From contig JAXLYP010000017.1 in NCBI GenBank assembly GCA_046351395.1, positions 1,508 through 65,507 of the forward strand: 64,000 nt of DNA, read 5' to 3'. Below are positions 1,958 through 29,190 of this stretch, one piece after another. The translations under genes were made by a program, and so were the position numbers. The first letter of the stretch is position 1. Each line of letters opens with the position of its first letter. The notes under the pieces were generated by a model, which was not told the DNA's origin, ran no database searches, and was given only the letters and a program-made list of their open reading frames with translations. This stretch comes from Polyangiaceae bacterium (GTDB taxonomy: Bacteria; Myxococcota_A; Polyangia; Polyangiales; Polyangiaceae).

Positions 1958-3499
1958 ATGCTGTTCGCGGGACGCTATCGTGTCGTCCAGCGGATCGGTG
2001 TCGGCGGCATGGGCGCGGTCTACGAGGTCGTGCACGTCGAGACGGATCGGCGCCGTGCGATGAAGGTGATGCACGCGCACGTCGTCGAGAGCCCGGAGCT
2101 CCGTGCGCGCTTCAAGCTCGAGGCGCGGGTCGCAGCGCAGATCGACAGCGAGAGCCTCGTCGATGTGTTCGACGCGGGCGTCGACGTCGCGACCGGGATG
2201 CCGTTCCTCGTGATGGAGCTTCTCCGCGGTGAGGAGCTCGGCAAGCGCGTCGCGCGCTTGGGGCGCCTCGCTCCCGGCGAGGTCGTCGCGCACCTGCGCC
2301 AGGTCGGCCGCGCGCTCGAGAAGACGCACCGTGCGAACATCGTCCACCGGGATCTCAAGCCGGAGAACCTGTTCCTCCACGCAAAGGAGGACTCCGCACC
2401 GCGCGTGAAGATCCTCGACTTCGGGATCGCGAAGTTCGTCGCCGACGTCTCGACGCAGACCGGCGGGACGAAGAGCCTCGGGACGCCGCTCTACATGGCG
2501 CCCGAGCAGTTCCTCACGAAGCCGCCGTCCCCCGCGAGCGATCTCTATGCGCTCGCGCTCGTGACGTACACTCTGCTCGTCGGCTCGCCGTACTGGTGGG
2601 AGGAGACGCAGAGCGGCACGAACCTGATCGCCTTCGCGCTGGTCGCCGCGAAGGGCCCGGTCGAGCTGGCGACGGCACGCGCCGCGCGGCGAGGGGCCAC
2701 GCTCCCGCCCGCGTTCGACGCGTGGTTCGCGCGGGCGACGAACGCCGATCCAGCGTCGCGGTACGCGAGCGCGATCGAGATGGTCGAGGGCCTCGCCGCC
2801 GCGTTCGGCTTCCCGGTCGACGCGTCCACGAGCTCCGGGGCAACGCCGTTCTCTGCGACCGTGGCCGCGCCGAGCGGCGCGACGGGCCCCTCGCCGGAGC
2901 TCGTCACGGGGGCGGGGCGGGACGCCCTCACGGGGCCGGTGGACCACACGACCCCGGAGCCCGCTCGCTCGAGCGGCCCCACCACGGCGCAGCGCCTGGA
3001 GAGCGCGCCCTCGGTCGCGAAGACGAACCCTGTCGGGCCCCGACAGAGCTCGTCGCGCCTCCTCCTGGCCGTCGTGCTCGCCGCGGGGATCTCGGCGGCC
3101 GTCGTCCTCCTCGTCGTGAAGCTCGGCTCGTCTCCTCCTTCCGGAGCCGCGACTGGGTCGGCGGTCGTCGCGAACGCGACCGCGCTGTCCACCGACACCG
3201 CGTCGGCGAGGCTCACGGTTCCGATCGCGCCGCAGCCGAGCGACACCGCCCTCACGCCCGCGCCGAACGCGAGCGCCGCTCCGAGCGTGAGCGCCGCTCC
3301 GAGCGTGAGCGCCGCTCCGACCACGGCGCCCGCGCAGCCGCGCCGGCCGAAGCTCCGCAGCCGCGGCGTGAGGTGCACCGGGGCCGAGCCTGGCCGCTGC
3401 GTGTTCTGCTGCCAGCTCGAAGGCGACATCATGGGTCCGCCGCCGAACTGCGAATGTCTGTTCGATGGCGAGAAGTGGGATCGGGAGCACGGCGGCTGA
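1958..3499 (+). CDS. Ser/Thr protein kinase (Hanks-type) with Pro/Ala-rich linker, TM segment and Cys-rich C-terminal tail
   Basis: ORF 917..3499 trimmed to ATG 1958 (MLFAGRYRVVQRIGVGGMGAVYEV). Kinase motifs seen: the G-rich loop, AMKVMH (the catalytic Lys), HRDLKPEN, DFG and the APE motif. A TM helix LLLAVVLAAGISAAVVLLVV follows. The tail is CVFCCQLEGDIMGPPPNCECLFDGEKWDREHGG. Confidence 0.85.
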   Translation: MLFAGRYRVVQRIGVGGMGAVYEVVHVETDRRRAMKVMHAHVVESPELRARFKLEARVAAQIDSESLVDVFDAGVDVATGMPFLVMELLRGEELGKRVARLGRLAPGEVVAHLRQVGRALEKTHRANIVHRDLKPENLFLHAKEDSAPRVKILDFGIAKFVADVSTQTGGTKSLGTPLYMAPEQFLTKPPSPASDLYALALVTYTLLVGSPYWWEETQSGTNLIAFALVAAKGPVELATARAARRGATLPPAFDAWFARATNADPASRYASAIEMVEGLAAAFGFPVDASTSSGATPFSATVAAPSGATGPSPELVTGAGRDALTGPVDHTTPEPARSSGPTTAQRLESAPSVAKTNPVGPRQSSSRLLLAVVLAAGISAAVVLLVVKLGSSPPSGAATGSAVVANATALSTDTASARLTVPIAPQPSDTALTPAPNASAAPSVSAAPSVSAAPTTAPAQPRRPKLRSRGVRCTGAEPGRCVFCCQLEGDIMGPPPNCECLFDGEKWDREHGG

Positions 3500-3625: not shown

Positions 3626-6600
3626 TCAGATGGTCTCCGTGGGAGGGGCGGGCGTGGCGAGGAGCTCGTGCACCGCCGATCGCAGGTCGCTCATCGAGTA
3701 GGGCTTCGAGAGCAACGAAACCGCCTGGTGCTCGACCCCGTACCGGACGACGGCGTCGTCCGGGTAGCCGCTCGTGTAGAGGACACGGATGTGGGGGTGG
3801 GTCGAGGCGAGCGCTTGCGCGAGAGACCGACCATCCATCCGGGGCATCACGACGTCGGTGACGAGCGCGTGGATCGGCCCCTGATGCCGCCGCGCGAGCT
3901 CGAGTCCCTCGACCCCGTCACACGCTTGGAGGACGGTGTACCCCGCGGCCAAGAGCGCGCGCGCGGCGATGCGCCGGATCGGCAGCTCGTCCTCGACGAG
4001 CAGCACGGTCGCGGAGGCGCGCTCTCCCCCGTGCGCTTGTGGTGCTCGGCGTGCTTCGACCGCTTCTTCCACGATCGGCAGGTACACGCGGAACGTGGCG
4101 CCAGCGCCGGGCTCGCTGCTCACCTCGACGTGGCCCCCGCTGCCGGACACGATCCCGTGCACCACGGAGAGCCCAAGCCCCGTTCCCCGCCCGACGCCCT
4201 TCGTCGTGAAGAACGGCTCGAACAGGTGCGCCTGCACGTCGGGCGTGATCCCCGAGCCGGTGTCGCTCACGGAGATCACGACGCACCCGCCGGCGCAGGG
4301 CCTTCGGCACTCGCCGTCCCTGGCGCGGCGGGTCGAGATCGTGAGGCGGCCGCCGCGGGGCATCGCGTCCCGTGCGTTGACGGCGAGGTTCATGAGCACC
4401 TGCGTGAGCCCGCCAGCATCGCTCTTCACGCGTACGGTCCCTGCGTCGAGCGCGATCGCGAGGTCGATGTCCTCGCCAAGGACCCGGCGGAGCATCTTCT
4501 CGGTCTCGAGGATCACGGCGTTGAGCTCGAGGACGCGCGGCTCGACGACCTCGCGACGGCTGAACGCGAGGAGTTGACGCGTGAGCGCCGCTGCGCGCTC
4601 GCCCGCCTCGCGGATCTCCCTTACGAGCGTCCCCCCGACGGACGACGGCGCAACCTCGTCCCCGAGCAGCTCGCAGCACCCGTGGATGACGGTGAGCAAG
4701 TTGTTGAAGTCGTGCGCGACGCCGCCCGCGAGGACGCCCACCGACTCCATCTTCTGCGTCTGCCGGAGCTGGGCCTCGAGCTCTCGACGCTCGGTGACGT
4801 CCTGCGCCGAGCCGGCGACGCGCACGACCCGGCCCGCGGCGTCCCGCACGGGGAACCCGCGATCGCGCACCCAGCGGACGACCCCGTCGGGGCGCACGAC
4901 GCGGTACTCCTCGTCGTACGTGCCCAATGTCTGCTTCGGGAGCGCCGCGATCACCCTCGCCCTGTCCTCCGCGTGGATCGCCTCGAGCCACGCTTGGGGG
5001 TTGTCGCGGAGCTCGCCCACTGGACGACCCCAGATCCGCTCGTAGCCGGGGCTCACGTAGACCATCTCGCGCTTGCCCGGATCCGTGAGCCAGAACGCCT
5101 CTTCGATCGTGTCGGCGAGCTGGCGAAAGCGCCCCTCGCTGTCCTTGAGAGCTTCCTCGACGTGCTTGCGCGCGGTGATGTCCTGGAGGACGACGAGCAC
5201 GTACACTTCGCCGCTCAGCGTCATCGACCTCGACGACACCAGCGTGTTCCGGATCTCGCCCGACGGCAGGTAGACCGGCACGTCGAAGAGGTCCGTGATC
5301 TCGCCGCCCATCGCGAGCTCCACCTTGAACGCGGCGCGCACCTCCGGGGGGCCGAACGGCAGGCTCGCGGTCGTCGCGCCGAGCGTCGCCTCCCGGGTCC
5401 GATCGAAGAGGCGGAGCGCCGCCTCGTTCACCTCGACGATTCGACTGTCCGCCGCGCGTACGAGGAGCTTCGCGATGGGGCTCTCTTCGAAGACGGTGGC
5501 GAATCGGCGCGTCGACTCCGCGAGGGCGTCCTCGAGTTGCCGCTCCGCGGTGAGGTCGGTCATCGCCGCCACCATTCCCCGGAGCGTGCCGTCCTCTCGC
5601 TTCAATGGCCCGACGGACAGTCGCACCGGCACGAGCCGGCCGTCGCGTGCGGAGCGTTCCGTGACCAAGTCGCGCACGATCTCGCCCCCCGCCACGGCTC
5701 TCCGAAGGGCGACGAGCTCTGCTTCGCGTTCGATGGGCAGCAGCATGAGCGGCTGCCCGAGGACCTCGTCCGCAGTCCACCCGAACACGCGCGTGGCCGC
5801 CGCGCTCCAGAGCACCATCTTGCTCGACGCGTCCATTGCCATGATCGGCATGGGGGCAGCGTCGACGATCGCCTTGACCTCCCCCAGCGCGAGGCGCTGC
5901 GCCTCCTCCCTGTCGCGTCGCTCGGTGACGTCGACCGAGAGGATGAAGATGCCCCGAGGCTGGGGCTGCACGCTCAGATCGAACCAGCGCACGCGCCCGT
6001 CCGGGAACGAGAACTCGGTCTCGAAGTGCGCTGGGACGCGGGAGCGCATGACCCCATCGAGGGTCGCGAAGAGCGGGGAGGCCTCGACACCCGGGTAGAG
6101 CTCGAGGACCGTCTTGCCCACCATTTGGTCCGGACGCAGCCCCGACTGCGCGCACACCGCCTCGTTCACGTAGAGGTAGCGCCAGTCGAAGTCGATGACC
6201 TGACACCCCTCGACCATGTGGTCCAGGAGCGAGCGGTAGAGCTCCTCCGCCCCACGCAGCTCCTCTTCGGTGCGCTTCTGCTCCGTGATATCGAGGACCG
6301 TCAGCAGCAAGCCCGTCCCGCCCTCCATGGGCACGGGGCTGATCCTCCCCTCGAACCAGCGCCTGCGCCCGTCGAGGAGGACGGCGCGTGGCGGGAGGTA
6401 CTGTTGCTCTCCGCGGCGAGCGTCGACGTGCTTCTGTCGGGCTTCGGCCGTCGCCTGCGGGAAGAGTTCGAAAATCTCCCGACCGAGGACGTCGTTCAAC
6501 CGTCGCCCAGCGGTCACGAGCCACGCGTCGTTCGCCATCATCACGTGGCCACGCGGGTCGAGCAGACAGAGACCGGCGCCGGCTTGGTCGAAGATCGTGT

Positions 6601-6876: not shown

Positions 6877-9054
6877 CTACCCGCGCCGCCGCCTGCGCCG
6901 CGCAAGCGCCGCGCCGAGGAGGAGCGCAGAGACGCCGAGGACCTTGCCGCCATCCCCGTCGTGGACGTCGATGCGGCAGCTGCAGCCGCCACCCTCTGCC
7001 CCCGCGCCGCTGCCGGCGACGGGTTGGCAGGTCGCGCTGCACACGCCCTTGCCGTTGTCCGCGCCGAGGTCACAGACCTCGGTGGGCGCGTCGACGACCC
7101 CGTTGCCGCACGTCTCGTTGGAGGTGCAGGTCGCGTTGCAACCGTCTCCGCTCGTCTTGTTGCCGTCGTCGCAGGTCTCACCCGGGTCGACCACGCCATC
7201 GCCGCACGTCGGAAGCGCGCAATCCGCGGAGCAGCCGTCGCCGTCCGTGGTGTTGCCGTCGTCGCACGCCTCGCCGTTCTTCACGTCGACGTAGCCGTTG
7301 CCGCAGGTCTCGTTGGAGAAACAGTCGCTGCTGCACCCGTCGCCGGAGACGTTGTTCCCATCGTCGCAGGTCTCCGCGCCTTCGACCTCGCCGTTGCCGC
7401 AGAACTCGACCTTGCAGGTCGCGCTGCATCCGTCGCCGCCGGCGGTGTTGCCATCGTCGCACGTCTCGCCCTCCTTCACGTCGATGACGCCGTTGCCGCA
7501 CGTCTCGTCCGAGGCACAGAGCGCGCTGCATCCGTCGCCGTCGACCTTGTTGGCGTCGTCGCACGCCTCGCCCGCGTCGACGTGGCCGTCGCCGCACGTC
7601 GGGAGCGAGCAGTCGTTGTGGCAGTCGTCATTGTCGACCATGTTCCCGTCGTCGCAGCCTTCGCCGACCGCCACGTCGACGACGTGGTTGCCGCACGCCT
7701 CGTCGGACTTGCAGTCGGACGAACAGCCGTCCCCGCTGATCGTGTTGCCGTCGTCGCACGCTTCGCCGAGGTCGACGGTGCCGTTGCCGCAGTACTCGAT
7801 CTTGCAAGTCGGCGAGCAGCCGTCCCCTGGGAACGTGGCGCCGTCGTCGCACTGCTCGCCCGCCTCGCTGTCGACGACGTCGTTTCCGCACGTCTCGTCC
7901 GACTTGCAGTCGCTCGAGCACCCGTCGCCGCTCGTCGTATTGCCGTCGTCACACACCTCGCCCGGCCGAAGCAGCCCATCGCCGCAGAGCTCGACGTGAC
8001 ACGACGCCGAGCAGCCGTCGCCGCTCGTCGTGTTGCCGTCGTCGCACTGCTCGCCGACCGGACCGTCGACGATGCTGTTGCCGCAACCCTCCGTGGACGT
8101 GCACGTCGCGTTGCAGCCGTCGGCGCTCACGTTGTTGCCGTCGTCGCACGCCTCGCCTTTGGCGACGTCGACGATCCCGTTCCCGCAGATCTCGAGGGAC
8201 TTGCAGTCGCTCGAGCAGCCGTCGCCGCTCGTATTGTTGCCGTCCTCGCACGCCTCGAGGCCCTCCTTCACCCCGTCGCCGCACAGCTCGCGGTGGCAGA
8301 AGCGATCACAGCCGTCGCCGTTCGTCGAGTTGCCGTCGTCGCACTGCTCGCCCGCGTCGAGGATCCCGTCGTGATTGCAGAACCCCCAGACCCAGGTGTC
8401 CGCCATGGTCGTGATCCCGCCGACGTCATACTGTTGCCCCGCGAAGACGTCGTCGTTGCCGTAGGCCGCCATCGCGATCGGCACACCGAGCGTGTCGAGG
8501 CCGATGAACGAGTCGTCGTTGCTCGGCGTCCATCGGAGCTGCCCGATGAGCCCGCCGGAGCTGTTCCAGACGGTGAGGTATTGCGTGCCGTTGAACCCTG
8601 CGGTCAGGCCGACCTGCGTGACCGGAACCGAGAACGTCGCGACGAAGCCGAGGCTCCCGAACGATCCTGACGCTTCACCGCCGTTCGGGACCGGCAAGGG
8701 AAAGTAGACACTCGGGCCTGGTTGGTAGGTCGGCAAAAAGGCGCTGCCCGTGTTGGTCACGCCCGCGAGGATCGACGACAGTGCTCCCGAGCGCCACGTG
8801 AGGCCCCGGCCCGAATAGATCCCGGCGGGCACGAAGCCCGACGAGGCTTCGTTGAAGCGGCCGACTCCGATCCGCGCGACCTGCCGGCCGTCGGGTATGG
8901 CGATGACGGCTCCCTGGACGGTCACGTTTCCCGCGTGAGCAACGCCCGGCGCCGTGAGCGCGAGCATTCCGAGAAGTGGTGCGATGGTACTGGCGACGTT
9001 CGGGGCACGCAGGCCCCAGCGGCCACGAGCGAGTGCGGGCAATGACTGCTTCAA
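6877..9054 (-). CDS. Secreted protein with about 20 Myxococcus cysteine-rich repeats (TIGR02232-like) and a MYXO-CTERM-like anchor
   Basis: ORF 6877..9150(-). Tandem repeats of about 40 aa of the form CGNGxV(D/E)xGExCDDGNxxxGDGCSxxCxxE. The C-terminus GGGCSCRIDVHDGDGGKVLGVSALLLGAALARRRRRRG is a GC motif, a TM helix and an Arg tail, i.e. a MYXO-CTERM-type sorting signal. The start was placed at TTG 9054, which follows GGAGGTG (an RBS) and gives a signal peptide ...STIAPLLGMLALTAPGVAHA. The exact start is uncertain. Confidence 0.8.
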   Translation of the reverse strand: MKQSLPALARGRWGLRAPNVASTIAPLLGMLALTAPGVAHAGNVTVQGAVIAIPDGRQVARIGVGRFNEASSGFVPAGIYSGRGLTWRSGALSSILAGVTNTGSAFLPTYQPGPSVYFPLPVPNGGEASGSFGSLGFVATFSVPVTQVGLTAGFNGTQYLTVWNSSGGLIGQLRWTPSNDDSFIGLDTLGVPIAMAAYGNDDVFAGQQYDVGGITTMADTWVWGFCNHDGILDAGEQCDDGNSTNGDGCDRFCHRELCGDGVKEGLEACEDGNNTSGDGCSSDCKSLEICGNGIVDVAKGEACDDGNNVSADGCNATCTSTEGCGNSIVDGPVGEQCDDGNTTSGDGCSASCHVELCGDGLLRPGEVCDDGNTTSGDGCSSDCKSDETCGNDVVDSEAGEQCDDGATFPGDGCSPTCKIEYCGNGTVDLGEACDDGNTISGDGCSSDCKSDEACGNHVVDVAVGEGCDDGNMVDNDDCHNDCSLPTCGDGHVDAGEACDDANKVDGDGCSALCASDETCGNGVIDVKEGETCDDGNTAGGDGCSATCKVEFCGNGEVEGAETCDDGNNVSGDGCSSDCFSNETCGNGYVDVKNGEACDDGNTTDGDGCSADCALPTCGDGVVDPGETCDDGNKTSGDGCNATCTSNETCGNGVVDAPTEVCDLGADNGKGVCSATCQPVAGSGAGAEGGGCSCRIDVHDGDGGKVLGVSALLLGAALARRRRRRG

Positions 9055-10244: not shown

Positions 10245-12605
10245 ATGGCCCACCCGCCCGACGCTCCGACCCCGCCCGAGCCACCTCATCCGTGGATCGG
10301 TCGAACCCTCCGCGACAAGTGGCGGATCGATGGCTTGCTCGGCAAAGGTGGAATGGCGACCGTCTTCTCCGCCACCCATCGGAACGGGATGCGCGGCGCC
10401 ATCAAGGTGCTCAACGCTTCGACCGGCGAGTCCGCGGACGCGCGCGCGCGCTTCATCCGCGAGGGGCGCGCGGCGAATCGGATCGATCACCCGGGTGTGG
10501 TGAAGATCCTCGACGACGACGTGACGGAGGACGGGCTCACCTTCCTCGTGCTCGAGATGCTCGAGGGCGAGACCTGGAAGGATCGCTGGCGCGCCCATGA
10601 TAGGCGCCTGCCCGTGCGCGAGACGATCGAGATCGCGACCGAGGTGCTCGACGTCCTCGCGGCGGCGCACCGCGCGGGGGTCATCCATCGCGACGTGAAG
10701 CCGGACAACGTGTTCCTGTGCAAGGGGACCGGCGACCTCCGCGGACCGGTGAAGCTCCTCGACTTCGGGATCGCGCGCCTGCGCGAGGTCGCGGGGGAGG
10801 CGACGGCGGACGGCGCGACGCTCGGCACGCCCGCGTTCATGTCGCCGGAGCAGGCGCTCGCGCACACGGAGCAGATCGATCACCGCAGCGACCTCTACGC
10901 CGTCGGCGCGACGCTCTGGACGCTCCTCAGCGGGCGTCTGGTGCACCCCGCGGCGACGGCGCCCGCGCTGCTCATCGCAGCAGCGACGACGCCCGCGGCA
11001 CCGTTCTCGAGCGTGATGCCGGACGCCCCAGCCGACCTCGCGGGCGTGATCGACCGCGCGCTCGCGTTCGACAAGGAGGCGCGGTGGGCGGACGCGGACG
11101 CGATGCGGGAGGCGCTGCGGCGCACGCTCGACGCGCCGGCGGTCGCGACCCTCCGCGCGGGCGTCGCGAGGTTCGAGGATCTGTCCGCGCCGACGGAGCG
11201 GTCGGGGGCCGCCGTCGCGAAGACGATCAAGCTCGACGCCTCACCCCTTCAGGCGACCGACTTCGGCGCCCAAAAGACGCTCGCGCAAGCGACGGCCGCT
11301 GCGCCCACGCCGAGGCGGTCGTCGGCGCGCGCCCTGATCGGCGCTGGCGCGGTGATCGCGGTCGGCGCGGGGGTCGCGGTGCTCGTCTCGACGATCGGGG
11401 GCGCCTCGACGTCGACCGCGCGGCCGAGCGCCTCGAGCGCGCCCACCCCGTCGAGCGCCCCTCCTCCTTCCACGCCCGAGCCGGTCGCCTCTGCGGCGCC
11501 GCCGGGCGCACACCAGGCGAAGAACCTCTTCGCGGGGCTCTACAGCACGTGCGCGGTTCGCAAGGACGGGCGTGTCGTCTGTTGGGGCAACGATCCCAAG
11601 GTCGGTGTGACCAAGTCCGCGCCGGGGCCCGCGCTCGTGAAGCGCCTCGAGGATCCGCGCTCCCTCGCGATCGGGGAGGCGGTGGACCTCGCGATCGTGC
11701 CCGCGGGCGCCGCCGGCCCGCGGCTGATCGGTTGGGGAAAGAACGTGAGCGAACTGCTCGGGACCAGCGTCCCGGACGGCGCCGTCGTCGACGTCGAGCA
11801 CGCGGTCGACCTCGAGATCCCGGGGGCGACGGACGTCGCCGTCGGCATGGTCTACGACGAGACGAGCGCGTGCGCCGTCGTCGACGGCAAGATCGAGTGT
11901 TGGGGGCGCGCCGGGCTCGCCCGGAAGGGGGCGATGAGCGAAGATCGAGCACCCCTCGCGATCCGCCTCGTCGCGGGCCCGTTCGAGCTGCCTGCGCGCC
12001 ACGTCGGCCTCGGCGCGAGCGACTTCGCGTGCGCGCTCGGCCAGAACGACGACTTCGTGTCCTTCGGGTGTTGGGGGACGGACCACCCGGAGCTCACACG
12101 TCAACGGGATCCGAAGTCGCGCTCCACCGATCAGTTCTGGGGCGCGTCGCCCTTGGACGCCTGGGCGGTGGGGCCGAGCGGCGCGTGCTTCACGAGCGGG
12201 CGATCCGTGACCTGTTGGGGAGGTGTCGCGCGGTGCGACGAGTCCGCCGAAGCGCCGCCCATGTTCGTCGAGGAACCGTCGAGTTCCATCGCCGTCGCGG
12301 GAGACCACCAATGCCTCGTCAGCGCGTCCGGGAAGCTCGCGTGCTGGGGGCGGGCGAGCTCCGCGACCGGCGATCCCAAGGAGAAGCGAGGGACCCTCGA
12401 GTGCAGCCCCGTCCCCGTGCCGCTCCCGGACAAGGCCACGAAGGTCGTCGTTGGAGGGGCCCACACCTGCGCGCTCACCGCCTCCGGAGACGTTTATTGT
12501 TTCGGTCGCAACGACGCAGGACAGCGCGGCTGCGGCGACGAGATCGAGACCCCCGTGCCGTGCCGTGTATCCCTGGACGTCCACTCGAGCGCATCGAGGC
12601 CCTGA
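10245..12605 (+). CDS. Ser/Thr protein kinase with TM segment and C-terminal RCC1-like repeat domain
   Basis: ORF 9882..12605 trimmed to ATG 10245 (MAHPPDAPT...). Kinase motifs GKGGMATVF, AIKVL, HRDVKPDNV, DFG and SPEQ. TM helix ALIGAGAVIAVGAGVAVLV. C-terminal repeats of the form xCAVxxDGxVxCWG (CAVRKDGRVVCWG, ACAVVDGKIECWG, ACFTSGRSVTCWG, CLVSASGKLACWG, TCALTASGDVYCFGRNDAGQRG), typical of RCC1/beta-propeller repeats. Confidence 0.85.
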   Translation: MAHPPDAPTPPEPPHPWIGRTLRDKWRIDGLLGKGGMATVFSATHRNGMRGAIKVLNASTGESADARARFIREGRAANRIDHPGVVKILDDDVTEDGLTFLVLEMLEGETWKDRWRAHDRRLPVRETIEIATEVLDVLAAAHRAGVIHRDVKPDNVFLCKGTGDLRGPVKLLDFGIARLREVAGEATADGATLGTPAFMSPEQALAHTEQIDHRSDLYAVGATLWTLLSGRLVHPAATAPALLIAAATTPAAPFSSVMPDAPADLAGVIDRALAFDKEARWADADAMREALRRTLDAPAVATLRAGVARFEDLSAPTERSGAAVAKTIKLDASPLQATDFGAQKTLAQATAAAPTPRRSSARALIGAGAVIAVGAGVAVLVSTIGGASTSTARPSASSAPTPSSAPPPSTPEPVASAAPPGAHQAKNLFAGLYSTCAVRKDGRVVCWGNDPKVGVTKSAPGPALVKRLEDPRSLAIGEAVDLAIVPAGAAGPRLIGWGKNVSELLGTSVPDGAVVDVEHAVDLEIPGATDVAVGMVYDETSACAVVDGKIECWGRAGLARKGAMSEDRAPLAIRLVAGPFELPARHVGLGASDFACALGQNDDFVSFGCWGTDHPELTRQRDPKSRSTDQFWGASPLDAWAVGPSGACFTSGRSVTCWGGVARCDESAEAPPMFVEEPSSSIAVAGDHQCLVSASGKLACWGRASSATGDPKEKRGTLECSPVPVPLPDKATKVVVGGAHTCALTASGDVYCFGRNDAGQRGCGDEIETPVPCRVSLDVHSSASRP

Positions 12606-13369: not shown

Positions 13370-13909
13370 TCAGCGCACGACGCATCGCCTCGAGGCGTCG
13401 CACGTGGCGCCTGCGTTCTTGCATGGATTGACGGCGCACTCCTGGCTCGCGAGCTCACGGGTGATGGGCGTACCGCTCACGCACGGACCGCAAGGCAGCG
13501 TTGGACAGTCCGCGTCCGACTTGCAGGCGATCGCGCCCGGCGCGGGGGCGGCGGGGCGAGCGACGCACGTCCCGGCCTCGCACGCGGCGACCACCCGATC
13601 GCATGGGGATCGCTCACAGACAGTGGGGCAGGGGTCGACGTGCATCGCGATGGACGCGACGCACCGCTGACAGTCGCACGAGCTCACCACCTGACAGTCG
13701 GCGTCGACCTTGCACGAACCCTCACGACCCTGGGAGGATTGGACGCTGGTCGGGATGGAAGACGTCGAGGGCGTGGTCTCCGGCCGCTTTGGCGTCGCCG
13801 ACGAACCCTGCGGCGCGTCCGTCGTCCCCGAACCGCGCGGCTCGGGGGGCGGAGAGCACGCCGCGAGGGAGACGGCGACCAGACCGACGAGCGCTGAGCG
13901 GTGAGCCAT
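13370..13909 (-). CDS. Cys-rich secreted lipoprotein (hypothetical)
   Basis: ATG 13909 gives MAHRSALVGLVAVSLAACSPP (lipobox). About 20 Cys in 180 aa (CKVDADCQVVSSCDCQRC..., CPTLPCGPC). Confidence 0.55.
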   Translation of the reverse strand: MAHRSALVGLVAVSLAACSPPPEPRGSGTTDAPQGSSATPKRPETTPSTSSIPTSVQSSQGREGSCKVDADCQVVSSCDCQRCVASIAMHVDPCPTVCERSPCDRVVAACEAGTCVARPAAPAPGAIACKSDADCPTLPCGPCVSGTPITRELASQECAVNPCKNAGATCDASRRCVVR

Positions 13910-13948
13910 GCGAAGCTCGTATCGCCTTTCGGCCCTCGCTCCAAGCGC

Positions 13949-14003
13949 ATGGATCTCTCCGAAAGAGGGGATGAGCACCGCGTTTCAACGGGATGGGGCG
14001 CTA
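13949..14003. repeat. Truncated third copy of the TIR-bounded intergenic element (right-terminal ~55 nt only)
   Basis: ggatctctccgaaa...gcaccgcgtttcaacgggatggggcgctac aligns with the last ~55 nt of the copy at 22349-22529 (ggatctctccgaaatcggctgcatacctcggcgtttcatgatggtcggtgtctac). As in that copy, the terminal cta overlaps the TAG stop of the adjacent minus-strand gene (14001). Confidence 0.5.
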
Positions 14004-15086
14004 CAACGGCGGTTGGGGCGAGCGGGCCCGCAGCGTGAACCAATGCTCTTCTGCCGCGTAGGTAGGCCCGTCATACGAGCCGCGCACGCTCCGCGAAAGG
14101 ACGAGCGCGTCCCCCGTGGTCGCGAACGCGAGGGCCGTGTCGTTCGTCGTGCGGTCATACCCCTTGTACGGGGGCCGCAGATACCGCGCGATCATCACGT
14201 CGTCCGATGCGCGGTAGACCGCGAGCTCGCGCGCCGTGGAGATGGCGTAGCGCGCGCTGTCTTCCGAGATCGCGACGGAGGGACGGTCGCTCGGCGGCGT
14301 CGCGGACGCCTTGGGCTCGTCCGCCTCGTTGCAGGTCCACGCGGCGGGGACGGGGGGCGTCGCGAGCGCGTACGGGCGCGACGAACCGTCCGTGGGGATG
14401 CGGAACGTGCGGGACCACGAATAGCAGTCGCCTCCAAACCAGAACGCGGGGGGCGCGAGCGCGTACGACAGATCGGGCGCGTATGCTGCGACGCCCCCCG
14501 GGCCGAGCTTCTTGCCCGAGAACAGATCGAAGACGTCCTCCCCGTGTCTGTAGTGGCCCGCGATGACGACGCCCCAGCCATTGCTCGAGCACGCCGTGGA
14601 GGCCATCGCCCCACCCGCGGAGCCCACGTGCCTCCTCCAGAGGAGTCGGGATCCTTCGCGCACCGCCAGGTTGCCGACGCCGTCGAGCGCGAGGTCGAGC
14701 GTTCGACCGCGCGACTCGATGGTCATCGACGCGTGCGCGCTCTCCTCCTCGCCGATACAGGTCGGTCCCGCCGCGCGCTTCGCGCGTCGCGCGTCGCGCG
14801 GCCGTCGCGGCTCGGCGACGAGCCGGAGGGGCAGGGTCTCGTCCGTCTCTCCGGCGCGCAACGCGGGGACCTCGGGTTCAGGTGGAGTCGCAGGCTCGGA
14901 CGACTCCGCACCGCTCGGCTGCGGAGCCCGCCTCTGTTCGAGAGCGCCGCTCGACGTGGGCGCCGCCGGCCCCTCGATGGTCGCCGCTGCCGAGGGCGGC
15001 GAAGAGATCGTCCGGCGATCATCGCGGTCCCCGCACGACGACAGACAGACAGTCAACACCAGGACCGGGCCCTCGGTCACCCTCAC
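14001..15086 (-). CDS. Putative lipoprotein (hypothetical)
   Basis: ORF 14001..15290(-). The C-terminal 300 aa are protein-like (aromatic-rich: GWGVVIAGHYRHGEDVFDLFSG, AFWFGGDCYSWSRTF...). LVLTVCLSSCGD is lipobox-like. The start is tentatively GTG 15086; the opposite-strand ORF is Arg-rich junk. Confidence 0.45.
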   Translation of the reverse strand: MRVTEGPVLVLTVCLSSCGDRDDRRTISSPPSAAATIEGPAAPTSSGALEQRRAPQPSGAESSEPATPPEPEVPALRAGETDETLPLRLVAEPRRPRDARRAKRAAGPTCIGEEESAHASMTIESRGRTLDLALDGVGNLAVREGSRLLWRRHVGSAGGAMASTACSSNGWGVVIAGHYRHGEDVFDLFSGKKLGPGGVAAYAPDLSYALAPPAFWFGGDCYSWSRTFRIPTDGSSRPYALATPPVPAAWTCNEADEPKASATPPSDRPSVAISEDSARYAISTARELAVYRASDDVMIARYLRPPYKGYDRTTNDTALAFATTGDALVLSRSVRGSYDGPTYAAEEHWFTLRARSPQPPL

Positions 15087-19222: not shown

Positions 19223-20332
19223 TCACTCGCTCCCAACGTCTTTCGGGAGCAGCTCGCGCGCGACCTGGATGCGGAGAATCCCGTCCTTCACGCGCTGGTC
19301 GTCGCCCGTCTTCTCTCCTTCCATCACGAGCCGGAAGCCGAACTCACAGCCATTCAAGTAGCGGATCCACGCGGCGAAGACCTGGCGGAAAGGCTCCTCG
19401 GGCGAGAAGCGCTCGGCGCGCTTCACCTCGGCGGCCCACGCGGGGACGACGCGCTCCTCGAGGATCGAGGCGAACCGAGCGCGGTCGATCTCCTTCGCGC
19501 GGAGGGACGCGCTCGCCGCCTCATAGTCCTCCAGGATGGCCGCGATCGCCGCGCGGCTGCGCTCGATCTCCGCGCTCGTGCGCGACTCCGGGCTCGGCCC
19601 GGCGGTCACCGCGAGGACCCACACCACCGCGCTCAGGGCGAACACGCCCGCTCGTCTCAGGCGCGCGTCCCACGGGGGCGCGCGTCTCCGGGCGTCGAGC
19701 ACGAGCGCGGCCGCGTACCCCACGACGAACCCTCCGAAGTGCGCCGCGAACCCGAGCTCGCGCATCGCGAGGCCGGGCACGAGCGTGAGCACCGTCATCG
19801 TGAGCACCTTGATGACGAGCCACCTCCGCGCCGCCTCCGGGATCCGCTCCCTCTGCAGCCGGACCTCCGCGAGGAGGGCGCCGTACATCCCCATGATCGC
19901 GCCCGACGCGCCGATGTAGACCACGTCCGGCTGCCACCACGCGCTCGCGAGCGCGCCCGCGAGGCCCGACAGCAGGTACACGCCGACGAACGCGACGTTG
20001 CCGAGGATGGCCTCCGCGGCTCGGCCGATGAGCCACATGCCGAACAGGTTCGCCGCGAGGTGGAGCACCCCGTAGTGCAAGAACATCGACGTGAGCATGC
20101 GCCACGACTCCGCGCGGAGGGCGCGGCCGTGGAGCCCTCCCCATGCGCGGAGCGACGCCGTCGTCGGCGCGAGGACGGACACGCCCTGCGTCGCGAGCGC
20201 CGCGAGCACGGCGACGTTCGCGACCATCAGCACGTAGACGACGTAGACGCGCGCTCCGAGCGACGCGACGAACGCCCGCTCCGCAGCGCGGCCGCTCGTG
20301 CGTGGGGGTGGGGTCTCGTCTCGCCCCTCCAT
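19223..20332 (-). CDS. Rhomboid family intramembrane serine protease with C-terminal soluble extension
   Basis: ATG 20332 (MEGRDETPPP...). Six TM helices. Catalytic GASGAIMG (GxSG) and the His in AHFGGFVVG. The ATG overlaps the TGA stop of the upstream kinase (cgcTGATGgag). Confidence 0.8.
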   Translation of the reverse strand: MEGRDETPPPRTSGRAAERAFVASLGARVYVVYVLMVANVAVLAALATQGVSVLAPTTASLRAWGGLHGRALRAESWRMLTSMFLHYGVLHLAANLFGMWLIGRAAEAILGNVAFVGVYLLSGLAGALASAWWQPDVVYIGASGAIMGMYGALLAEVRLQRERIPEAARRWLVIKVLTMTVLTLVPGLAMRELGFAAHFGGFVVGYAAALVLDARRRAPPWDARLRRAGVFALSAVVWVLAVTAGPSPESRTSAEIERSRAAIAAILEDYEAASASLRAKEIDRARFASILEERVVPAWAAEVKRAERFSPEEPFRQVFAAWIRYLNGCEFGFRLVMEGEKTGDDQRVKDGILRIQVARELLPKDVGSE

Positions 20333-22338
20333 CAGCGCGCGAGCTGTGCGCGCAGCGCTCCGCAGCGCTCGCCGAGCCAGAACTGAAGGAGAGTCTGTCG
20401 ACGACCCCGTCGACGGTGAGCACCCCCGCGGCTGGCGGAGTGCGCGTGGATACCGCGGAGCGCGCTGCCGAGGTCGCCCGTGACGACGAGCGCGGCGCGC
20501 GCGGCGGTCGCGTGTGCTCCCCGGATCGTGCGCCCCAGATCCGCGACGGAGGCCGACTGCAACAGGCGATCGACCTTCTCGCCGAGCGCGTCGCGCTCCG
20601 CGGGCCGCAAGTTCTGTCGGAGCATCGCGGTGATCGGCGCCGTCTCCGCGTGCATCGCCGCGGACCGCCCCGTCGCTTCGGCGAGGCTCGTCACGAGGTT
20701 CCGGAGGTTCTCGGTCGTCCCGAAGAAGTGCGCCGCGTAGAGCTCGGGCCGGAGGCGCGCGAGGGATCGCGCGGCCACGAAGAGCGCGCGCGGTGGTGAG
20801 AGGATCGCGAAGAACGACGCGCTCGCAACGCACGTCGGCGGCGCGCCGTGGTGGACCGCGACGGGGACGGCGCTCTCCGCTCGCACGAGGACGCGGGGCG
20901 TGTGGATGGCGAGGAGCGCCGCCGCGCGGAGCACCGCCGCGAGCGGCTCGGATGGCGGCGTGTGAGGGTCGAGGGGCCACGTGCGTTCGCCGGCGGGCGC
21001 GCTTCGCGCGCCGCTCGCGCGCGCGCGCGGCGCGGCCGCGCCGCCAAGTACGTCCACGAGGGGCAGCGCGAGATCCTCGTGCAAGAGCGCGCGCCACGCG
21101 GCATCGTCGAGCGGGACCGTCAGCGTCGCGGGGCGAGGGGGAGCGCCCGCGAGCGCCGCCTCGCTCGGCGACGCGTCCTTGAATGCGGAGAGGAGGGTCG
21201 CCGCTCTCCACGAAAGATCGCCGTCCCCCGTGCTTGCAGCGAACGAGAGGAGCTCGCGGACGAGCCGCGGCTGGCGCGGCGTGCGCTCGAACTCCGCGCG
21301 CACGTGCGCGATCGGCCGGCGACCGCCCGTGACTTTCGCCGGCTCGTCCGGCTCGACGAGATCGGGGTCGATCTCGTCGATCTCGTCGATCTCGTCGATC
21401 TCGCCGATCTCGTCGATCTCCTCGAAGTCCGCGGGATCCAGGAACTCCTCCTGGGCGCCGCCCCCCAGGAGGACCGGTCGGAGCGCCTCGAACGCCTCGC
21501 GGGCGCTCGGAAAGCGGCGCGCCGGATCGCGCGCCACCGCGACGAGGAACCACGCGTCGAAGCCTGGCGGGAGCGCGCCGCGCACGCCGCGCCGCGCCGC
21601 GCGCACACTCGGCGCCTCGATGGGATCCATGATCACCTCGCGCAGAAGGGCGTGCACGCTCGAGTCGGAGTCCGTCGCCGCGTTCCAATAGTACGCGCCC
21701 GTGAGGACCCGAAACGCGATGAGACCGAGCGCCCACACGTCCGTCGCCGGGGTGATGCGGCCCTTCGAGTCGGACTGCTCGGGCGCCATCCAGAGCGGCG
21801 TGCCCATCGATTGCGTCGCCTGGCTCACCGCGCTCGCGACGACCTTCGCGATCCCGAAGTCGAGGATCTTCACGTGGAGGTCGGCGCCGATCCTCCGCGA
21901 TCGGGCGAGGAACACGTTCTCCGGCTTGAGGTCGCGGTGCACCACGCCGCGCGCGTGCGCCGCGGCGAGCCCGTGGCAGAGCTGCGCGAGGATCACCGCG
22001 GCGTCCGCGGCGCTCTTCGCGCCCGCGCGCGTGAGGTGCGCGGCGAGATCTTCCCCGGAGAGCAGCTCCATCGCGAGGAACGGCGTCCCCGTCGGAGCGT
22101 CGACGCCGGCCGCGACCACCTCGACGACGTGGTCGCTCTCGATCGACGCCGAGATCCGCGCTTCCTGCACGAAGCGCTCGCGGAGGCGCGCGTCGCTCAC
22201 CAGGTTCGGGTGCATGAGCTTCAGGGCGCGCTGGCGGCCCGTGGAGAGCTGCTCGGCGACGAACACCGAGCCCATCCCGCCCGCGGACAACGGCCGAAGG
22301 ACGCGGAAATCGCCGCCTACGATCGCGCCCGCCTTCAT
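20332..22338 (-). CDS. Ser/Thr protein kinase with acidic (EID)n repeat linker and long C-terminal domain
   Basis: MKAGAIVGGDFRVLRPLSAGGMGSVF, ALKLMH, HRDLKPENV, DFG and APEQ. Linker FEEIDEIGEIDEIDEIDEIDPDL is encoded by a 9-nt tandem repeat. The stop overlaps the rhomboid start. An RBS (GAGGAG) lies 5 nt upstream of ATG 22338. Confidence 0.8.
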   Translation of the reverse strand: MKAGAIVGGDFRVLRPLSAGGMGSVFVAEQLSTGRQRALKLMHPNLVSDARLRERFVQEARISASIESDHVVEVVAAGVDAPTGTPFLAMELLSGEDLAAHLTRAGAKSAADAAVILAQLCHGLAAAHARGVVHRDLKPENVFLARSRRIGADLHVKILDFGIAKVVASAVSQATQSMGTPLWMAPEQSDSKGRITPATDVWALGLIAFRVLTGAYYWNAATDSDSSVHALLREVIMDPIEAPSVRAARRGVRGALPPGFDAWFLVAVARDPARRFPSAREAFEALRPVLLGGGAQEEFLDPADFEEIDEIGEIDEIDEIDEIDPDLVEPDEPAKVTGGRRPIAHVRAEFERTPRQPRLVRELLSFAASTGDGDLSWRAATLLSAFKDASPSEAALAGAPPRPATLTVPLDDAAWRALLHEDLALPLVDVLGGAAAPRARASGARSAPAGERTWPLDPHTPPSEPLAAVLRAAALLAIHTPRVLVRAESAVPVAVHHGAPPTCVASASFFAILSPPRALFVAARSLARLRPELYAAHFFGTTENLRNLVTSLAEATGRSAAMHAETAPITAMLRQNLRPAERDALGEKVDRLLQSASVADLGRTIRGAHATAARAALVVTGDLGSALRGIHAHSASRGGAHRRRGRRQTLLQFWLGERCGALRAQLAR
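21368..21425. repeat. 9-nt tandem repeat (gatctcgtc) x~6.5 encoding (EID)n in the kinase linker
   Basis: Direct reading: gatctcgtcgatctcgtcgatctcgtcgatctcgccgatctcgtcgatctcctc. Confidence 0.8.
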
Positions 22339-22348
22339 CCGCTCCTCG

Positions 22349-22529
22349 CTAGAGCACCGGACACGTCGAGACCCGAACGAATGCGCTCGAGTTCGAGGGA
22401 GAGGCGCACGCCCGAGGAGCGAGCGCCCGAAGCCGACTCCGCATCATGCCCGGAGCAGCGCGACGAGGCCGTTTGGATCTCTCCGAAATCGGCTGCATAC
22501 CTCGGCGTTTCATGATGGTCGGTGTCTAC
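22349..22529. repeat. TIR-bounded ~181-bp intergenic element, copy A (MITE-like)
   Basis: Starts ctagagcaccgg and ends cggtgtctac. About 85% identical to the reverse complement of 28085-28266 over the full length. Its left end lies 10 nt upstream of the kinase ATG (22338). Its right-end cta doubles as the TAG stop of the cyclophilin gene. Confidence 0.7.
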
Positions 22530-26509: not shown

Positions 26510-28084
26510 ATGGAGAGCCCGGCCGAAATCGGTGATCTGATCGCCGGCAAATACCGCGTCGACAAGGTCCTCGGGACCGGCGGCATGGGCGTCGTCGTGG
26601 CGGCGACGCACGTGGGCTTGAACGAGGTCAGAGCGATCAAGATGCTCCGACCGAAACTCGCGACGAACCCGGCCTACACCGATCGGTTCCTCCAGGAGGC
26701 GCAGGCGATCGCGCGCCTCAAGAGCGAGCACATCGCCCGCGTGCACGACGTCGGCATCCACGTGCGCGCGGACGGCCAGAGCGTGCCGTACATGGTCATC
26801 GAGTACGTCGAGGGCGGCGATTTTGCGACCGTCCTTCGGCAGCGCGGTGCCCCTCCCGTCGAGCAGGCGGTGACGTACGTCCTCCAGATCACCGAGGCGC
26901 TCGCCGAGGCCCACAAACACAACATCGTCCACCGGGACATCAAGCCGGCGAACCTCTTCCTGTCGACGAGCAACGACGGATCCGCGTGCGTGAAGGTGAT
27001 CGACTTCGGCATCGCGAAGACGGCCGCGAACCTCACGCAGGTCGGCGTGGTGCTCGGCAGCCCGCGCTACATGTCGCCCGAGCAGATCCGGGAGTCGCGC
27101 GACGTCGACGTGCGCGCCGACATCTGGTCCCTGGGGATCGTGCTCTACGAGCTCCTCACGGGACAGACCCCGTTTCAAGGTGGCGGCATCCTCGAGGTGT
27201 GCGAGCGCATCTTCGAGGACGACCCGGCGCGCCCGTCGCGGCTCCGCGCCGACGTTCCGGCCGCGCTCGACGCGGTGGTGCTGCGCTGCCTCGAGAAGGA
27301 TCGCGAGCGCCGCTACCCCCACGTCGCCGCGCTCGCGGAGGCGCTCGCTCCGTTCGCGACGGAGGACGCGCGCACCGTCGCGCAGCGGGTCGCGCGCGTG
27401 CTCGGCGTCGCCTTGCCGGCGAGGGTGCCGCTGCCCGCGGCGCCCGCGGTCGATCCATCGCCCAGCCACACGGACGTCGATCCCCGCCCGGTCGTGGTGC
27501 TCTCCACCCCCGATCCGCGCCCGCTCGGGCAGGACACGTCGACCGATCTTGGCCCGCCGAACGGCGCCGCGGCGCCTCCCGCGCCGACGCTCGTCTACGC
27601 CCAGCCCGGTCACCCGCGTCCTCCGTCGGGGCCTCGCGTCGGATCGGTGACGGAGACGTCCCTCGGCGCGATCGGCGCGGCGTCGCCCATGCCCGTCGGG
27701 GCTGTGTCGACGCTCCCCGCTGGGCGCGGGCGCCTGATCGCGATCGCTGCCGTGACGGGCGTCGCGGTCGCGGCGGTCGCGACCGCGATCGCGTGGCCCG
27801 CCGACCGAACCGCTCCGCCGAGCGCGGCGAGCGCGGCGGCGCCGTCGGACACGAGCTCCGCGCCCGCGCCCGCGCTCGCGAGCTACTCGGCCCCCATCCA
27901 CGCGGCCTCCTCCGACGCGAGCTCGAGCGCGCCGCTCACGGCGAGCTCGAGCCCCAGCGCATCGGCGCAGCCGTCGAGCGCTCCGCCCCCGCGCGCGACC
28001 TCGGCCCCGCAGCGCCCCGTCGGTCCGACGACCGCGCCGCCGCGATCGCCGGGCGGGCTCACGTCGAGCCGAGGCAGGATTTAG
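26510..28084 (+). CDS. Ser/Thr protein kinase with TM segment and Ser/Ala/Pro-rich C-terminal tail
   Basis: MESPAEIGDLIAGKYRVDKVLGTGGMGVV, AIKML, HRDIKPANL, DFG and SPEQ. TM helix LIAIAAVTGVAVAAVATAIAW. An alternative GTG start lies at 26483. The TAG stop at 28082-28084 is followed directly by the TIR element. Confidence 0.85.
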   Translation: MESPAEIGDLIAGKYRVDKVLGTGGMGVVVAATHVGLNEVRAIKMLRPKLATNPAYTDRFLQEAQAIARLKSEHIARVHDVGIHVRADGQSVPYMVIEYVEGGDFATVLRQRGAPPVEQAVTYVLQITEALAEAHKHNIVHRDIKPANLFLSTSNDGSACVKVIDFGIAKTAANLTQVGVVLGSPRYMSPEQIRESRDVDVRADIWSLGIVLYELLTGQTPFQGGGILEVCERIFEDDPARPSRLRADVPAALDAVVLRCLEKDRERRYPHVAALAEALAPFATEDARTVAQRVARVLGVALPARVPLPAAPAVDPSPSHTDVDPRPVVVLSTPDPRPLGQDTSTDLGPPNGAAAPPAPTLVYAQPGHPRPPSGPRVGSVTETSLGAIGAASPMPVGAVSTLPAGRGRLIAIAAVTGVAVAAVATAIAWPADRTAPPSAASAAAPSDTSSAPAPALASYSAPIHAASSDASSSAPLTASSSPSASAQPSSAPPPRATSAPQRPVGPTTAPPRSPGGLTSSRGRI

Positions 28085-28266
28085 CTAGAGCACCGATCAT
28101 GTTGAAACGCCGACGTATGCACCCGATTTCGGAGAGATCCACACGGCCTCGTCGCTCCGCTCCTCAGATGACGAGGAGTCGTCTTGCGGTGCTCGCTCCT
28201 CGGACGTGCGCCTCTCCCTCGAACTCGCGCGCATTCGTTCGGGTTTCAACCTGTTCGGTGCTCTAG
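28085..28266. repeat. TIR-bounded 182-bp intergenic element, copy B (MITE-like)
   Basis: ctagagcaccgatcatgttgaaacgccgacg...cattcgttcgggtttcaacctgttcggtgctctag. The terminal inverted repeats are 12/12 perfect and about 30/35 over the extended termini. It fills the spacer exactly, from the kinase stop codon to the GTG start at 28267. Confidence 0.75.
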
Positions 28267-29190
28267 GTGCGAACGTCGCTCTTCGCGATCGCCCTCGCCT
28301 CGCCATCCGTCGCGCTCGCCGCGCCCGGTCCCACGTCTGCGCAGGCCGAGGCGCTGTTTCAAGAAGGGATCGCGCTCGTCGATCAGGGGCAGCCCGCCCT
28401 CGGCTGCCCGAAGCTCGAAGAGAGCGAGCGGCTCGAGTCCCAGGTGGGCACCGAGTTCCGACTCGCGGACTGCTACGAGCGCATCGGGCGGACCGCGAGC
28501 GCGTGGGCCCTCTTCGTCCAGGTGCAGGGGAAGGTCGAGACGAAGGAGGAGATCGAGAAGGCGAAGGGACGCGTGGACGCGCTCGCGCCCAAGCTCACGC
28601 GCCTGCGCATCCTCGTGCCGGACGCCGTCGCGTCGCTCGTCGAGCTCGAGGTGCAGCGTGACGGTGTGCTCGTCGGTCGCGCGAGCTTCGGAGCGGCGGC
28701 GCCCGTGGACCCGGGGCCCCACACGATCCGCGTGACCGCGAAGGGCAAGGCGCCCTGGGAACGGCACGTCACGGCGGACGGGCCCGGCGCGACCGTGGAC
28801 GTGTCCGTCCCCGAGCTCGAGGCTTCGACCGAGGGGAGCGCGGGTGGCTGGGGCATGCACCCGCGGCGCGTGGCGGGCTTCGCGATCGGTGGTGCGGGGC
28901 TCCTCGGGCTCGCGATCGGCGGCGTGCTCGCGGGCGTCGCGGCGAGCACGTGGAGCGACGCGGAGGCCCTCTGTCCCGCGAAGAAGGGCTGCTCCGAAGA
29001 GGCGCACGCCGAGAGCCTCACCGCGCTGTCGCTCGCGGACGGCGCGACCGCGATGTTCGTGATCGGCGGTGCCCTCGCCGCGACCGGGATCGTCCTCGCC
29101 GCCATCCCGACGTCGCAGGGAAGCGCGGAGCGCGCGGCGGTGTGGATCGCGCCAACCTTCGGGGGCGCGCTCCTGAAGGGGACGTTCTGA
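28267..29190 (+). CDS. Secreted/membrane protein with PEGA-like beta domain and C-terminal TM helices (hypothetical)
   Basis: GTG 28267 gives MRTSLFAIALASPSVALAAPG (signal peptide). N-terminal TPR-like helix pair. PEGA-like segment LRILVPDAVASLVELEVQRDGVLVGRASFGAAAPVDPGPHTIRVTAKGK. Two C-terminal TM helices. There is no SD sequence, because the start abuts the repeat element, so the start is uncertain. Confidence 0.5.
   Translation: MRTSLFAIALASPSVALAAPGPTSAQAEALFQEGIALVDQGQPALGCPKLEESERLESQVGTEFRLADCYERIGRTASAWALFVQVQGKVETKEEIEKAKGRVDALAPKLTRLRILVPDAVASLVELEVQRDGVLVGRASFGAAAPVDPGPHTIRVTAKGKAPWERHVTADGPGATVDVSVPELEASTEGSAGGWGMHPRRVAGFAIGGAGLLGLAIGGVLAGVAASTWSDAEALCPAKKGCSEEAHAESLTALSLADGATAMFVIGGALAATGIVLAAIPTSQGSAERAAVWIAPTFGGALLKGTF

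Follow-up and report, generated by a model that had tools for sequence, protein, structure and literature searches.

A probable one-ended remnant of a TA-flanked MITE at the TAG stop of a Polyangiaceae gene

The DNA analysed in this study is a single stretch of 64,000 nucleotides from a Polyangiaceae bacterium, referred to below as the window. An intergenic segment of this window, designated copy C, is very probably a dead, one-ended remnant of a non-coding hairpin transposon (MITE) of approximately 182 nt, which was inserted at a stop codon, suffered a deletion and retained its outer end. Two fuller copies, A and B, are situated 8 and 14 kb from copy C. The fragment itself is of minor importance, being an ordinary fossil that marks an old insertion and that now serves as a stop codon and spacer. 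The coordinates of the features are listed in Table 1.

Table 1. Positions in the window of copy C, its parts, the adjoining genes and the two fuller copies
Feature	Position	Strand	Details
Downstream Cys-rich lipoprotein gene	13370..13909	-	Lipobox LAAC; 19 Cys in 179 aa
Spacer from remnant to lipoprotein start codon	13910..13945		36 nt
Copy C, one-ended remnant	13946..14004	+	Corresponds to the right-terminal ~60 nt (profile ~122-182) of the 182-nt MITE; local alignment, nhmmer
Exact 15-mer common to A, B and C	13950..13964	+	TGGATCTCTCCGAAA, i.e. GGATCTCTCCGAAA and the preceding T; 15/15
Degenerate terminal inverted repeat of copy C	13980..14004	+	19/25 against the right terminus of B (CGTTTCAACATGATCGGTGCTCTAG), including GCGTTTCAAC at 10/10
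TAG stop of upstream gene	14001..14003	-	Composed of the flanking TA and the G with which the remnant begins; open frame of 433 codons (GC3 0.88)
Upstream gene U0414_26490	14001..14861	-	Hypothetical protein, 286 aa, TTG start
Copy A, full length, decaying	22349..22528	+	180 nt
Copy B, intact	28085..28266	-	182 nt

Copy C, its neighbours and copies A and B

Copies A and B are true MITE copies with terminal inverted repeats (TIRs) and a palindrome extending over the full length. They are 86% identical over 176 nt, and each is an imperfect palindrome. In copy B, the termini are perfect over 11 nt within a 47-nt TIR matching at 81%, the full-length hairpin has a folding energy of -86.5 kcal/mol (z = -6.5), and comparison of the copy with its own reverse complement gave 43.7 bits. 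The right terminus of copy A carries a 1-nt deletion and ends in CTAC, and its hairpin is lost (z = -0.9). Copy A lies between the stop codon of a PPIase gene (22526-22528) and the start codon of a Ser/Thr kinase gene (22338), both on the minus strand, and copy B between a kinase stop codon (28082-28084) and a GTG start at 28267, both on the plus strand. TA was found at both ends of A and B, with CTAG flanking B on both sides and CTAG and CTAC flanking A. Removal of the element together with one TA gave plausible tight operon junctions, these being reconstructions rather than natural empty sites: CCG TAG CGAGGAGCGG ATG for copy A, in which a Shine-Dalgarno-like spacer links the PPIase stop to the kinase start, and ATT TAG CTAG GTG for copy B. 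At least four paralogous Ser/Thr protein kinase genes are represented in the window (2099-2521, 10621-10717, 21763-22185 and 26865-26961), and two of them directly adjoin copies A and B.

Copy C has the same orientation as copy A, and on the minus strand, which is the sense strand of the neighbouring genes, it reads GTAGCGCCCCATCCCGTTGAAACGC...TTTCGGAGAGATCCATGCG. The preliminary description placed it at 13949-14003; the 54-nt string quoted there is present, but at 13951-14004, i.e. 1-2 nt off, and the similarity to A and B starts at 13946-13950, slightly before that string. As first described, copy C matches the right-terminal third of the element, being collinear with the last 60 nt or so of A and B and identical to B in 45 of 62 alignment columns and to A in 44 of 64. 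Its 14-nt core GGATCTCTCCGAAA, reported as a 14/14 match, has exactly three exact occurrences in the window, at 13951 (+), 22475 (+) and 28127 (-), and the expectation from shuffles was 0.59 matches even with up to 2 mismatches allowed. The 15-mer TGGATCTCTCCGAAA is the form specific to A and B, the block being read as TGGATCGGGCGCGAAA or TGGATCACGCGTGAAA in another Polyangiaceae MAG. The second shared block was likewise recovered, GCGTTTCA being present in all three copies and GCGTTTCAAC matching copy B at 10/10. The exact 15-mer and the exact 10-mer are equally spaced in copy C and in the fuller copies, and the second block is separated from the terminal CTA by 13-14 nt in A, B and C. Conservation of copy C is patchy, with the two perfect blocks surrounding a segment of about 15 nt of low identity, and this departs from the prediction of uniform neutral decay.

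Across the segment matched by copy C, A and B are identical at 53 of 61 positions (87%), compared with 69-73% for C against A or B, and C is the more diverged. The left two-thirds of the element are missing, as stated previously: no left-arm sequence was detected near copy C or anywhere in the window, and the recognisable part comprises only about 55-59 nt of the right end. Besides its one degenerate terminus (19/25), copy C retains approximately 35 nt of the arm next to it; a partner arm and a second terminus are missing, and its structure did not exceed that expected by chance (z = +0.45). Because only one degenerate terminus is present, copy C is considered a remnant and not an intact MITE. 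The divergence, the single terminus, the absent left arm and the loss of structure agree with the earlier view of an older, decayed and truncated copy. Copies B, A and C form a decay series, with hairpin z values of -6.5, -0.9 and +0.45, respectively.

Several further matches in the window were considered and rejected. An inward extension of copy C (13960-13920, minus strand, against the inner left arm) gave E = 0.083 with the profile built from A and B only and was absent with a 20-sequence profile. Core matches with 2 mismatches at 61584 and 63361, and weak profile matches near 19341 and 63488, fall within long ORFs and are not part of any longer similarity.

The CTA at 14001-14003 ends the annotated minus-strand CDS 14001-14861, confirming the coincidence with a TAG stop that had been noticed from the sequence. 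The product of this CDS is P0001 (U0414_26490) except for the first residue, which is encoded by TTG. Its C-terminus is approximately 7 residues longer (RARSPQPPL) than those of its homologues, which are 60-63% identical; the homologues end in ...WFTIE(xx) followed by TGA, and U0414_26490 stops at the TAG of the remnant. The insertion may have reshaped the end of this gene. No identical protein on record was found for P0001, the lipoprotein or the protein starting at 28267. The regions compared at the C-terminus were 14001-14040 in the window and L003:9740-9763, L006:4590-4613 and L007:2738-2761 in the homologous loci. No filled or empty orthologous site was found for copy C, the nearest homologues of the upstream gene, at 60-63% identity, not being syntenic. 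The homologue loci were rejected as empty sites; they have unrelated downstream genes and no element, and this degree of identity is too distant. A match to GGATCTC in the spacer of L003 was also discarded, since it lies in what appears by eye to be a histidine-kinase pseudogene fragment.

On the other side of copy C, the lipoprotein gene has its ATG at 13909, and the N-terminus of the product, MAHRSALVGLVAVSLAAC, contains the lipobox. The gene had been proposed to occupy the space of the missing part. A full copy would indeed extend to approximately 13822, inside the gene, but the 36-nt spacer intervenes between the remnant and the start codon. No site matching the sigma-70 promoter or the intrinsic terminator consensus was found on either strand between 13300 and 14400.

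The element family and its target sites

The exact pattern GGATCTCTCCGAAA N12-20 GCGTTTCA gave no matches in representative genomes and two in metagenomes, both on low-GC contigs and judged to be due to chance; the A/B variant is therefore absent from these two collections. When two perfect 11-nt termini at element spacing were searched for, with CTAG flanks imposed by the pattern, more than 108 loci were obtained, mostly in Myxococcota MAGs. Carriers among the matches listed included Polyangiaceae, Kofleriaceae, Sandaracinaceae and Labilithrix luteola DSM 27648. From the listed matches, 112 elements of 167-196 nt were extracted, which have lineage-specific interiors and share 22 conserved terminal positions, CTAGAGCACCGAACaGgTTGAa. 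Conservation drops to background right outside the CTAG, and the flanks have no base preference. The Polyangiaceae MAG_MBR_H125.7 contains at least 20 full-length copies that are 76-85% identical to B. Repeated mobility, for which copy C had been cited as support, is shown much more strongly by the more than 100 copies at unrelated loci in other genomes than by copy C.

Covariation in the hairpin was analysed with an alignment (A1) of 18 copies from the window, L112, L021, L025, L077, L059 and others. The consensus full-length hairpin has 59 pairs, and 95% of the cells pair, compared with 31-41% when the partners were slid. Changes on both sides were observed in 18 pairs against 3-9 in the slid controls, and none of 500 shuffles reached the observed values. 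The hairpin of the full copies is thus kept by compensatory changes between subfamilies, which may reflect selection on the RNA or a requirement of the DNA. Variants of the central stem are CTCCG/CGGAG in A, CTCCTC/GAGGAG in B and CTCGC/GCGAG in a third form.

No match at the gathering score of Rfam 15 was obtained in the whole window, and the terminal 36 nt of the element fold at only -2.2 to -2.3 kcal/mol, i.e. they form no REP-like palindrome. The family is classified as a MITE because its members are short and non-coding, have TIRs, sharp boundaries and a hairpin, occur at many loci and have no Rfam or REP identity. Neither the terminal sequence in a relevant context nor a description of a myxobacterial MITE was found in the searchable literature, in which the family appears to be undescribed. 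A paper on CTAG in Halobacterium was set aside as a precedent, its topic being methylation and CTAG avoidance and not MITE targeting.

Nested or tandem copies share one CTAG, and solo ends also exist. Two-ended mini-derivatives of 30, 62 and 98 nt were observed directly beside full copies, with one CTAG in common (L016:~1932-1961, L039:~5886-5915, L067:6042-6071, L076:1247-1308 and L076:7469-7566); the 30-nt form is CTAGAGCACCGATCATGTTCGGTGCTCTAG. They may be products of excision or deletion, or preferred targets for re-insertion. The copy at L047:151-332 is a chimera with the left arm of one MAG_MBR_H125.7 subfamily and the centre and right arm of the other, indicating recombination between copies. 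The same termini with a quite different core were found in at least 20 copies in JAWLHA01 ("Gammaproteobacteria bacterium 30dZY2.bin.20"; L010, L014, L029, L030 and others). This core holds a REP-like palindrome, GGTGGATAAGCGCAGCGCATCCACC, which weakly matches plasmid sequences of Thiodictyon and enterobacteria. Horizontal spread of the transposase system is one possible reading of the JAWLHA01 copies, and mislabelling of the bin is another.

The tetranucleotide CTAG occurs at 7 sites in the window, against approximately 170 expected from composition, three of the 7 belonging to the ends of A and B. For the high-GC loci, 841 kb in total, 221 non-element sites were counted against approximately 2,445 expected. 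CTAG is 11- to 24-fold depleted in these genomes, and it is the usual flank of the listed copies, a flank fixed by the search pattern. With a genuine coding frame defined as at least 80 codons with GC3 of at least 0.8, 55 of the 214 element ends among the listed matches (26%) close a coding frame exactly at the terminal TAG, compared with 8 and 8 in the other frames (binomial p = 3e-14). A TAG stop is supplied at one or both ends by 51 of 107 elements (matches listed, L010-L117), compared with 39 of 221 non-element CTAG sites (18%; odds ratio 4.25, Fisher p = 3e-8). These results indicate that the stop-codon coincidence at copy C is a property of the whole family and not an accident. The element begins with G, and the upstream TA plus this G therefore rebuilds TAG. 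The truncated solo end at L045:1561, which is comparable to copy C, is still the stop of a 960-codon gene. On the simplest reading, insertion would take place at the TA within CTAG or TAG, and insertions at CTAG sites inside genes would be lost.

No transposase enclosed by a pair of termini 0.6-4 kb apart was detected in 870 kb of loci, and BLAST against a plasmid collection gave matches to the interiors only and none at the termini. The region 1529-5933 of L096 was rejected as an autonomous parent since it encodes ordinary genes (alginate export, FMN reductase, TauE and FmdE), and the ORFs inside other solo-end intervals are not transposases. Insertion of IS630-family elements takes place at TA and duplicates these 2 bp (PMC2170065), and IS630 is described as preferring the TA in 5'-CTAG-3' (Tenzen & Ohtsubo 1991, as cited in PMC2170065). 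Considering this duplication and this preference, an IS630-like transposase acting in trans is the most likely driver of the family. As no transposase with these termini was found, the link to IS630/Tc1-mariner is drawn from the target site only. Subgroups of the IS5 family also duplicate TA, in YTAR sites, and would fit the target data equally well.

Origin of copy C and alternative explanations

The history that best explains copy C is as follows. A TA-duplicating DDE transposase of the IS630/Tc1-mariner kind, supplied in trans, would have moved a full copy by cut-and-paste to the junction of U0414_26490 and the lipoprotein gene, the insertion being into the TA of the stop codon. The duplicated TA and the first G of the element would then have rebuilt the TAG stop of U0414_26490. 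At least 125 nt, among them the other terminal repeat, would later have been deleted, and the surviving arm would have drifted to approximately 70% identity, so that folding and transposition should no longer be possible. The outer end probably persists because U0414_26490 still uses its TAG; the rest of the remnant would act as spacer and 5' leader before the lipoprotein gene.

How far the match exceeds shuffled controls, the comparison that the preliminary description had put forward, depended on the scoring: copy C stood out with local shuffles and with composition-aware scores but failed to do so with uniform scores over the whole window. Local dinucleotide shuffles of 121 nt gave z = 6.7 and 8.3, and none of 1000 reached the observed score. 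In Smith-Waterman alignment with uniform scores (+2/-3) over both strands of the 64-kb window, copy C scored 36 against a mean maximum of 37.3 for Markov-3 random sequence, and a real coding tile at 10701 scored 40. Uniform scoring was rejected as misleading since GC-rich DNA is too easily aligned to GC-rich DNA, a methodological warning for alignment statistics in high-GC sequences. With log-odds scores derived from the composition of the window, copy C was the top real tile (34.5, next best 25.8) and none of 100 random windows reached it, the best of them being within rounding. In nhmmer searches of the whole window with the A and B profile, copy C was the best match outside A and B (E = 0.011); the 20-sequence subfamily profile gave E = 0.13, and a profile of another genome's copies without A and B found the same site in the same register at a non-significant E = 4. 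From these last two values, the case for copy C depends on words specific to A and B. The sequence thus carries a genuine signal of modest size, to which the exact terminal register and the stop-codon coincidence add weight: independently of any score, the alignment ends exactly at the element terminus, this terminus is the stop of a real gene, and the site is intergenic.

Chance would mean that some 55-nt stretch of a 71% GC window happens to resemble part of a 180-nt query, and this is improbable. It would fit the uniform-score results, in which the score of copy C is equalled in random 64-kb windows and exceeded by one real coding tile, as well as the E = 4 obtained without A and B and the frequent occurrence in random windows of exact 14-16-nt words in common with A or B. 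Against it, the match is made up of AT-rich words whereas the surrounding sequence is GC-rich, copy C is an outlier under composition-aware scoring and by nhmmer with the A and B profile, and the alignment ends, between genes, at an element terminus that doubles as the TAG stop of a real gene, a situation shared with copy A and with 26% of the listed family ends. Somewhat less improbable, although still unlikely, is a derivation from a related but different element, such as another subfamily or the end of an autonomous parent, in which case the missing two-thirds never had the A/B sequence. The mosaic conservation would be accounted for in this way, with the 15/15 and 10/10 blocks split by the poorly matching segment of about 15 nt (GAGGGGATGAGCACC), which is the same segment that differs between the subfamilies of the other MAG; the family also includes chimeric copies and shorter two-ended forms (30, 62 and 98 nt). 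Copy C, however, has in its core block the TCTCC specific to A and B, which the subfamilies of the other genome do not have, and no second terminus or transposase fragment lies beside it. A different parent element is in any case a variant of the MITE-remnant explanation and not an alternative to it.

The least probable of these explanations, and a very improbable one, is that the shared blocks are a functional cis-element upstream of three genes (a regulator site, promoter or RNA motif), with copy C as a minimal version. In favour of it, the genes on either side of each copy are co-directional, the three copies have the same orientation relative to the downstream gene, and both blocks are perfectly conserved in surroundings that are not. 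Three of three in one orientation, however, has p = 0.25. In the close subfamily, the stop is supplied by the R arm in about 10 cases and by the L arm in about 4, which is no significant difference, and the orientation is therefore not fixed. Moreover, the region has no sigma-70 promoter or terminator consensus, no Rfam family and no structure in copy C, and the distance from the blocks to the downstream start differs about threefold, being approximately 130 nt in A and B and approximately 40 nt in C.

With copy C taken as a MITE remnant, a broader and tentative proposal, which we consider possible but rather doubtful, is that an undescribed MITE lineage spans Myxococcota and persists preferentially at TAG stops and tight operon junctions, and that remnants such as copy C and L045:1561 have been exapted as stops. 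If so, the G at the first base of the element would regenerate the stop that is interrupted, and a 59-pair hairpin would be placed in polycistronic transcripts. Dependence of host genes on the TAG of the element would then be a small-scale exaptation rather than pure junk. Apart from this proposal, the family offers a case of a mobile element that repeatedly donates stops and places conserved hairpins in operons, with possible effects on transcript processing or translational coupling. It explains the clustering of intergenic repeats at TAG stops in these 70% GC genomes, and its 22-nt signature can be used to annotate hundreds of short repeats in large, poorly annotated Myxococcota genomes.

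Comparison with known repeats and other repeats in the window

The family resembles insertion sequences of the IS630/Tc1-mariner group and their MITE derivatives (ISY100, IS630) in having TA flanks, mostly in CTAG, and TIRs of about 22-25 nt, and it resembles the MITE derivatives in being short, non-coding and present in many copies. It differs from the established elements of this group in that no transposase with these termini was found in the 870 kb of loci or the plasmid collection. Correia elements (CREE/NEMIS) of Neisseria are MITEs of 100-155 bp that have TIRs and duplicate a TA target. Co-transcription with adjacent genes is frequent, and the elements form hairpins and provide the adjacent genes with functional signals, being known for promoters and RNase III/IHF sites and not for stop codons. 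No sequence relationship between Correia elements and the present family is known, and the host phylum and base composition differ.

ERIC/IRU and MIRU sequences are imperfect palindromes or short repeats found inside operons between co-directional genes, and MIRUs, which are tandem repeats containing small ORFs, touch or overlap stop and start codons of the adjacent genes. They are not known to have the sharply defined TIRs and TA/CTAG flanks of the present family. REP/REPIN sequences, which are mobilised by RAYT, are similar to the family in being intergenic and of high copy number, in forming hairpin doublets and in having a conserved GTAG-like terminal tetranucleotide. In the present family, unlike in REP/REPIN, the 36-nt terminus is not itself a palindrome (-2.2 kcal/mol), the conserved parts are the long inverted termini on either side of a lineage-specific core, and the element ends are in TA/CTAG.

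Other repeats were also observed in the window. At 7089-8371, approximately 14 tandem repeats of 93/102 nt (a double unit of 195 nt) with 60-78% identity encode a Cys/Asp-rich repeat protein on the minus strand, and at 3249-3338 a short tandem array contains 4-5 copies of the 18-nt unit GCGTGAGCGCCGCTCCGA.
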